The position numbers were made by a program, and so were the translations under genes. A stretch of DNA of 64,000 bases from assembly GCF_041886205.1 (NCBI RefSeq), contig NZ_CP169029.1; one strand, given 5' to 3'. The notes beneath the pieces are model-generated. The model had not been told where the DNA came from. It ran no database searches and was given only the letters and a program-made list of their open reading frames with translations. This document shows, piece after piece, positions 63,152 to 64,000 of this stretch. This DNA is from Escherichia coli (GTDB lineage Bacteria; Pseudomonadota; Gammaproteobacteria; Enterobacterales; Enterobacteriaceae). How positions within the stretch are numbered: position 1 is the first letter of the stretch; each line of letters begins with the position of its first letter.

Positions 63152-63781
63152 ATGATTCGGGTAGTGCTGGTGGATGACCATGTGGTGGTGCGCTCTGGCT
63201 TCGCACAATTACTCTCTCTGGAAGACGATCTGGAGGTCATTGGTCAGTACAGTAGTGCCGCGCAGGCATGGTCGGCATTAATCCGTGATGACGTTAATGT
63301 TGCGGTCATTGATATTGCCATGCCGGACGAAAACGGCCTCAGTTTGCTTAAGCGCCTGCGTGCACAAAAACCGCAATTTCGCGCCATTATTCTTAGCATT
63401 TATGACGCGCCAACCTTTGTGCAAAGCGCGCTGGATGCCGGTGCCAGCGGGTATTTAACCAAACGCTGTGGGCCGGAAGAGTTAGTGCAGGCGGTGCGCT
63501 CGGTCGGGCTGGGCGGGCATTATCTCTGTGCCGATGCAATTCGTGCTTTACGCGGCGGCGGGCAACCTGCCCAGGCGCTGGAAATTCTCACCCCACGAGA
63601 ACGTGAAGTGTTTGATTTACTGGTCAAAGGTGACAGCGTTAAAGAGATCGCCTTTAAACTCGAACTCAGTCATAAAACGGTACATGTGCATCGCGCCAAT
63701 GTGCTGGGAAAACTGAACTGCCATAGCACCATTGAACTGGTGCATTTTGCGCTCGACCACCATCTGCTGGCGGGGCATTAA
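63152..63781 (+). CDS. NarL/FixJ (LuxR)-family response regulator, UhpA-like paralog
   Basis: 209 aa, MIRVVLVDDHVVVRSGFAQLL... with a receiver domain and C-terminal HTH (LSHKTVHVHRANVLGKL); closely resembles UhpA but is not at the uhp locus. Confidence 0.85.
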   Translation: MIRVVLVDDHVVVRSGFAQLLSLEDDLEVIGQYSSAAQAWSALIRDDVNVAVIDIAMPDENGLSLLKRLRAQKPQFRAIILSIYDAPTFVQSALDAGASGYLTKRCGPEELVQAVRSVGLGGHYLCADAIRALRGGGQPAQALEILTPREREVFDLLVKGDSVKEIAFKLELSHKTVHVHRANVLGKLNCHSTIELVHFALDHHLLAGH

Positions 63782-64000
63782 TGTCGCGCAATCTTCGTCA
63801 TTGGGTGGTTTCGTTGTTTATTGTGCTGGCCTGGGGAACCGGCTGGCTGATGCTGTGGACGCTCAGCTTTTATCTGACCAATAACGGTCAACAGGCGGCG
63901 CTGTTTCTGCCGCACGGGGTTTACCTCGCCCTTCTTATTTTACTTGCACGCCGCTACTGGCCTGCGCTGGTGCTCCCCCCTTTGCTGATGATGTTCTGGC
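63781..64000 (+). CDS. N-terminal part of a UhpB-like sensor histidine kinase (3' end outside the window)
   Basis: TAATG stop/start overlap with the regulator; translation MSRNLRHWVVSLFIVLAWGTGWLMLWTLSFYLTNNGQQAALFLPHGVYLALLILLARRYWPAL resembles the membrane N-terminus of UhpB. Confidence 0.7.
   Translation, partial: MSRNLRHWVVSLFIVLAWGTGWLMLWTLSFYLTNNGQQAALFLPHGVYLALLILLARRYWPALVLPPLLMMFW

Follow-up and report, generated by a model that had tools for sequence, protein, structure and literature searches.

Next to the taurine operon of the Escherichia coli DNA analysed here (64,000 nt in all, hereafter the window) lie genes for a two-component system, and the question is whether these are a displaced uhp locus or a system of their own, and which transporter they control. 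From the letters alone, an earlier sequence-only reading had recognized a NarL-family regulator and the start of a membrane sensor kinase, both related to UhpA/UhpB. Domain searches bear this out: the regulator (FusR; for the name see below) contains a Response_reg domain (residues 4-116, E=2.4e-25) and a GerE/LuxR HTH domain (145-200, E=5.1e-20; Pfam), and with receiver and HTH it belongs to the NarL/FixJ (LuxR-type) response regulators. The protein is identical to RefSeq WP_000621915.1. Its stop codon, TAA at 63779-63781, shares the last A with the fusK start codon at 63781-63783, and the resulting TAATG overlap (63779-63783) is as had been described. The part of fusK inside the window consists of 73 hydrophobic codons and is open up to position 64000; homologues of FusK carry the Pfam domains PF05231, PF07730 and PF02518 (MASE1, HisKA_3, HATPase). 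Since tauA (61887-62849) is encoded on the minus strand, fusR-fusK is divergent from tauABCD. The features are collected in Table 1; an Rfam scan of 62700-64000 returned no RNA family at E<=0.1.

Table 1. Features at the right-hand end of the window (window coordinates).
Feature	Position	Strand	Description
tauA-fusR divergent control region	62850..63151	.	302 bp, separates tauA from fusR
Conserved block TTTTGTTACATCCATTCCATATC	63058..63080	+	just upstream of the fusR -35; putative regulator-binding site
Predicted fusR sigma-70 promoter	63094..63121	+	TTGCCA, 16-nt spacer, CATGAT; from a consensus scan
fusR	63152..63781	+	209-aa NarL/LuxR-type response regulator (REC + GerE HTH), UhpA paralogue
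fusK 5' end	63781..64000	+	first 73 codons of a MASE1 histidine kinase (513 aa at full length); gene cut by the window end

The relationship to the Uhp system of K-12 is close at several levels. FusR is 48% identical to UhpA (E=2e-59), and full-length FusK is 34% identical to UhpB over the whole length (E=4e-70). The phospho-acceptor Asp54 of FusR (VIDIAMPD) falls on UhpA Asp54 in a gapless alignment, with the acidic pair D8/D9 kept, while the H-box histidine of FusK, His324, has its counterpart in UhpB His313. The recognition helix, KTVHVHRAN, is identical in FusR and UhpA, and the slightly longer SHKTVHVHRAN is at least 90% conserved across 59 FusR-type and 14 UhpA-type regulators. Asp54 and the H-box His, like residues of the UhpT R46/R275 type, are functionally important according to the Uhp/GlpT literature. 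(In the raw alignments to UhpA, UhpB, UhpC and UhpT, the subject numbering is one residue low, as codon 1 of these minus-strand genes was left off.) Among NCBIfam equivalogs, the best models are UhpA (NF007685) for FusR and UhpB (NF008649) for FusK, the latter scored with the full-length kinase from a genome that is 100% identical over 62850-64000.

These best models, together with a TAATG overlap like that of uhpA/uhpB, could be taken to mean that the pair is the canonical uhpABCT locus, merely displaced. However, this is improbable in the extreme. Identities of 48% and 34% are low for such a case, and the scores of 193.4 and 376.3 bits lie under the curated cut-offs of 258 and 408, respectively. 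A canonical uhpABCT locus would have uhpT adjacent, at ilvBN-uhp, but the genes downstream of this pair are afuABC, and no uhpT is present. Moreover, uhpAB proper is present at a separate place in 5417 of 5426 complete E. coli genomes, compared to 519 of 5426 for the fusR-fusK pair, which is therefore an extra paralogue and not a displaced uhp locus. Identity, NCBIfam cut-offs, downstream genes and the separate uhpAB together refute the canonical assignment. The same counts agree with the sequence-only reading in placing the canonical uhp locus elsewhere and in calling the pair strain-variable; its view that K-12 has no two-component system at this position is also correct, as K-12 carries yaiO-yaiX-yaiP-yaiS there.

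Comparison with O-island paralogues supplied the name that the earlier reading lacked: fusR and the start of fusK are FusR/FusK (FusKR; Z0463/Z0462) of O-island 20 (OI-20), a system that is already known. FusR matches ECs_0418 of O157:H7 Sakai in 207 of 208 aligned residues, and FusK is 97% identical to ECs_0417. The layout in Sakai is identical, from ECs_0413 to ECs_0418, so that the O157:H7 locus and the genomes identical to the window have in common the gene pair, its position between tauA and frmR, and the downstream genes (tauA, RR-HK-uhpC'-afuABC, frmR, with uhpC' standing for a uhpC-like gene). Given this match in both sequence and position, the locus is the known FusKR. Sakai served as the O157:H7 reference, and the mapping of Z-tags to ECs-tags relies on the unique gene order. 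Z0462 and Z0463 have been named fusK and fusR (PMC6199705), and OI-20 is known to carry afuABC together with the fucose two-component system (PMC4546632). A review describes FusK as a MASE1 kinase with eight helices, and FusR as a repressor of ler that belongs to the LuxR-type regulators (PMC11644481). The DNA of the window is about 3% diverged from the FusKR alleles of O157:H7 and O55:H7, and its host genome, unlike that of the O157:H7 FusKR, is small and not O157.

The sequence past the window end was taken from genomes with DNA 100% identical to the window (wlxctx60, LHM10-1). Over its final 14 kb, the window shows 100.0% identity to two complete E. coli genomes, wlxctx60 (wild bear isolate, 4.65 Mb) and 6EVA (human isolate, 4.61 Mb), and LHM10-1 (pig) matches it at 100% over 62850-64000. 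Behind the regulator, wlxctx60 and LHM10-1 encode a MASE1 kinase of 513 aa, a 434-aa MFS protein and the parts of an ABC system, namely a binding protein, a fused permease of 692 aa and an ATPase, after which come frmR-frmA-fghA. The MFS protein, named UhpC by PGAP, shares 53% identity with UhpC, against 29% with UhpT; it passes the NCBIfam UhpC model (NF008661; 585.5 bits, cut-off 564) and retains both arginines aligned to UhpT R46 and R275. The afuA product, encoded about 2.7 kb past the window end, matches AfuA of A. pleuropneumoniae (PDB 4r72-4r75) with E=1.5e-169. The pair fusR-fusK is the front of a six-gene module, fusR-fusK-uhpC'-afuA-afuB-afuC. The sequence-only reading had proposed a target transporter just past the window: rightward extension does lead to a UhpC-like gene and then to the sugar-phosphate importer genes afuABC, but the transporter is of the ABC type and not the UhpT/PgtP-like antiporter that had been expected.

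As the window holds only 73 kinase codons, and a frameshifted fusK is found in O145 RM9873-C1, the pair might also be a decaying remnant whose kinase is truncated or frameshifted in the source strain, leaving it non-functional. We regard this as very unlikely, since of the two genomes that are 100.0% identical over the last 14 kb, the one inspected, wlxctx60, has an intact 513-aa kinase and a complete module, and the kinase is likewise intact in LHM10-1. Neither of the two findings named beforehand as fatal to the earlier reading, a uhpABCT locus downstream or a truncated kinase, was encountered in the identical genomes. Of these genomes, wlxctx60 and 6EVA (100.0% over 14 kb) are nearer to the window than LHM10-1; TauA of the window (61887-62849) differs from that of LHM10-1 (11038-12000 of the extracted locus, L001) by two residues, despite the 100% identical fusR region. 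Within the module, E. coli and Citrobacter have a 4-nt overlap between the uhpC-like gene and afuA (L001 15859-15862; kinase-to-uhpC' spacer at L001 14474-14557), so that afuA is left without a promoter of its own. A uhpC'-afuA gap of 220-815 bp is seen in Samsonia, Pectobacterium, Xenorhabdus and some Serratia and Vibrio.

The composition of the module is conserved far beyond E. coli. Among 76 loci (one genome per species, genes mapped by tblastn), the order fusR-fusK-uhpC'-afuA-afuB-afuC was found in 53 of 53 FusK-type loci with enough flanking sequence, representing 22 named genera of Enterobacterales and Vibrionaceae; another 7 FusK-type loci are incomplete and end at contig or locus ends. 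The UhpC-type MFS gene follows the kinase directly in every FusK-type locus with enough sequence, which gives the three-component arrangement typical of Uhp, while UhpB-type loci have uhpT in this place and are without afu genes. Identity of the FusK homologues falls from ~87% in Citrobacter, 83% in Serratia and 79% in Edwardsiella to 67% in Buttiauxella, ~57% in Photorhabdus, Providencia and Pectobacterium, and 41-44% in Vibrio and Photobacterium, which are also among the syntenic genera. Such strict co-inheritance of six genes points to a joint function of the sensor and AfuABC. The comparison across the 22 genera suggests that the main task of FusRK is to switch on the adjacent AfuABC importer, and not only to sense fucose. 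AfuABC binds and imports glucose-6-phosphate (G6P), fructose-6-phosphate (F6P) and sedoheptulose-7-phosphate (S7P) and rescues a uhpT mutant, and the same was shown for the C. rodentium orthologue of the OI-20 transporter (PMC4546632). The binding protein encoded past the window end corresponds to that of these characterized systems (A. pleuropneumoniae, C. rodentium; PDB 4r72-4r75). Sit et al. noted afuABC in OI-20 beside FusKR, and regulation by FusR was not addressed there (PMC4546632).

A candidate for the DNA element that links the regulator to the importer lies between the kinase gene and uhpC'. This spacer measures ~84-106 bp in nearly all loci, and its alignment contains a palindrome at the kinase stop codon (consensus CTAGGAA-N3-TTCCTAG), a TCTCATCC box 15 nt downstream of it, and a TAnnnT hexamer, which reads TATAGT in E. 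coli (L001, about 14533-14538). If TAnnnT is the -10 element, the palindrome would be centred at about -63; both the -10 and the transcription start are predicted from conservation. With up to two mismatches allowed, 33 of 58 loci have the palindrome at this place, compared to 1 other match in 1.15 Mb. In E. coli it reads CCAGGAAAAAGTCTTAG and begins immediately behind the fusK stop codon, with three mismatches; the operator of Citrobacter is likewise a degenerate copy, and one match with three mismatches in 25 kb is not significant when taken alone.

All 15 uhpT loci compared, those of K-12 and of 14 other species, have the same palindrome upstream of the gene, and in the 14 other species a CTCA(A/G/T)GC box and a -10 element come next. 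The K-12 copy is CTAAGAAATTTTCCAGG, with its centre at -64 when counted from the sequence with TACAAT taken as -10, which matches the UhpA site known from the work of the Kadner laboratory. The arrangement of a Uhp-type three-component system, with a UhpA-box ~64 bp upstream of the transporter promoter, is thus present in the sequence as a putative operator. By analogy with UhpA-P at uhpT, we infer that phosphorylated FusR (FusR-P) may bind the palindrome and activate uhpC'-afuABC. Because palindrome and recognition helix are common to the two systems, cross-talk at the DNA level is possible where both are present. A consensus scan of the module for promoters and terminators gave counts equal to the shuffled expectation and did not pick out the uhpC'-afuABC promoter; its sole product was the candidate fusR promoter (Table 1).

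These observations bear on the published account of FusKR, according to which FusK directly senses L-fucose set free from mucin, FusR-P acts as repressor of ler/LEE and of the fuc genes, z0461 encodes a fucose importer, and afuABC is merely nearby. Fucose-dependent signalling, binding of FusR to ler and colonisation defects are reported in reviews and a transcriptome paper citing Pacheco et al. 2012 (PMC11644481, PMC4810492, PMC6199705), and deletion of fusKR abolished the fucose-dependent repression of LEE in a 2026 study (PMC12976359). As the whole story, however, this account appears doubtful. Against it stands the strict six-gene synteny in 22 genera. LEE is not known outside a few Escherichia and Citrobacter lineages. 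Also at odds with it are the MFS partner, which passes the UhpC model with both phosphate-binding arginines kept, and the conserved operator, which is the UhpA box. The reported FusR site at ler differs from the palindrome at 7 of 14 positions in its best match; it bears no resemblance to the palindrome and was rejected as a copy of it. Finally, the best matches to the window are genomes of 4.6-4.65 Mb, one from a wild-bear isolate and one from a human isolate.

The best overall explanation, which we hold with considerable confidence, is that the genes encode the FusKR system of OI-20, a paralogue of Uhp that would regulate uhpC'-afuABC. What the genes are, their order, the conservation of the operator and the common recognition helix are shown by the sequences, whereas the nature of the ligand, the sign of the control (activation and not repression) and the position of the transcription start are inferred. 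By analogy with Uhp, the UhpC-like receptor and the MASE1 kinase FusK would detect an external ligand, most plausibly a hexose or heptose phosphate. FusK would then autophosphorylate on His324 and pass the phosphate to Asp54 of FusR, and FusR-P could bind the palindrome CCAGGAAAAAGTCTTAG, centred near -63 of a weak promoter. Bound FusR-P would turn on uhpC'-afuABC and with it the uptake of G6P, F6P and S7P by an ABC importer. In LEE-positive strains, FusR is reported to respond to fucose and to repress ler (PMC11644481, PMC6199705). The latter paper reports that FusKR represses z0461, the uhpC-like gene (PMC6199705), opposite in sign to the activation proposed here.

In this scheme, Fus and Uhp would resemble each other from sensor to operator. 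Both have the same three-protein sensor (NarL-type regulator, MASE1 kinase, MFS receptor), the same TAATG overlap, the same Asp54, H-box His and recognition helix, and the same palindrome ~63-64 bp upstream of the regulated promoter. However, Uhp drives the antiporter UhpT, whereas the transporter of the Fus module is AfuABC, an ABC system transcribed together with the receptor gene, and the signal reported for FusKR is fucose, unlike that of Uhp. The suggestion of sugar-phosphate sensing, which the sequence-only reading had made, hence finds backing in the synteny and the UhpA-type operator, but not in the published experiments, which assign L-fucose and repression of ler/LEE to the system (PMC11644481, PMC6199705). 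The fucose view and the sugar-phosphate view are not mutually exclusive and can coexist.

Upstream of fusR, no copy of the palindrome is present: a search for fusR autoregulation found none in the window at up to three mismatches. The lack of a UhpA-type palindrome upstream of fusR fits sensor genes that are constitutive or separately regulated, as in uhpABC. The predicted fusR promoter ends 31 nt upstream of the ATG (corresponding to L001 12245-12272 in LHM10-1), and both of its hexamers are conserved in Citrobacter, Leclercia, Enterobacter, Serratia and Yersinia. The conserved block TTTTGTTACATCCATTCCATATC contains GTTACAT-like direct repeats and, in alignments, is kept across Enterobacteriaceae and Yersiniaceae, even with a different upstream neighbour. 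As a CRP site the block was judged weak, given that its TGTTA-N6-TTACA is without the key G/C positions of the CRP consensus.

The junction between tauA and frmR exists in three states in E. coli (L003, L006): with fusRK-afuABC, with yaiO-yaiX-yaiP-yaiS as in K-12, or empty, i.e., with tauA directly adjoining frmR. Similarity of the window to K-12-type genomes stops ~38 bp upstream of the tauA ATG (near 62887), and similarity to the empty-site genomes stops at ~62987, with 138 bp in common. As only these 38 bp upstream of tauA are held in common with the K-12 type, the tauA control region differs between genome types.

The distribution of the module indicates that it is not a peculiarity of one pathogen. 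The 519 E. coli carriers include O157:H7, O55:H7 and O145, plus many isolates from poultry, pigs, humans and wildlife, and the module occupies the same site in Citrobacter, Leclercia and Enterobacter, again divergent from hemB-tauDCBA. In these three genera, the module proteins are about as close to those of E. coli (FusR 90%, FusK 85%, UhpC' 94%, AfuA and AfuB 96%) as the flanking TauA, TauD and HemB (94-97%). As the divergence of the module is comparable to that of the flanking core genes, an old locus that was lost or replaced in most E. coli is a better fit than its recent acquisition by O157:H7. In reviews, FusKR figures as a recent acquisition peculiar to O157:H7, and one of them proposes Enterococcus faecalis as a possible source (PMC11644481, PMC4810492); the distribution data disagree with FusKR being confined to O157:H7 or derived from E. 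faecalis. There is in our view an even chance that FusKR, in its native and ancestral role, would be the regulatory arm of a second hexose-phosphate uptake system, in which FusR, FusK and the UhpC-like Z0461 make up a Uhp-type sensor for external sugar phosphates, with the module at the tauA site being old in the Escherichia-Citrobacter-Enterobacter group and the connection to fucose and LEE in EHEC a secondary or indirect overlay.

A divergent class of copies, 90-95% identical, is present in 67 genomes. In NCTC9082, the one genome inspected, all six genes lie elsewhere (L083 7537-17300), beside a tyrosine integrase and IS66 remnants, and adjoin a pseudogenised ulaE and ulaF. The link of this copy to an integrase and IS sequences implies that the module can also move as a mobile island. 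In O145 RM9873-C1 (L084 9130-10670), where fusK is annotated as frameshifted, FusR is WP_000621915.1 and identical to that of the window.

As a finding, the locus itself is ordinary, being a named and studied system with an identical regulator protein already in RefSeq. What could matter is its context, i.e., its presence in many hosts and serotypes among the 519 of 5426 E. coli genomes and the tie to afuABC that 22 genera have in common. For this known locus, a sugar-phosphate role fits the comparative data as a testable reinterpretation. If FusR does activate a sugar-phosphate importer via a UhpA operator, the signal logic of EHEC virulence would need to be re-examined, as would therapeutic designs that build on the activation of FusKR by fucose. 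Farther from the module, the window encodes an intact 980-aa autotransporter of the EhaB/YaiT type (54887-57829, minus strand) that adjoins hemB, and in O55:H7 DEC5B (L004) the same gene is interrupted by an IS3 element.
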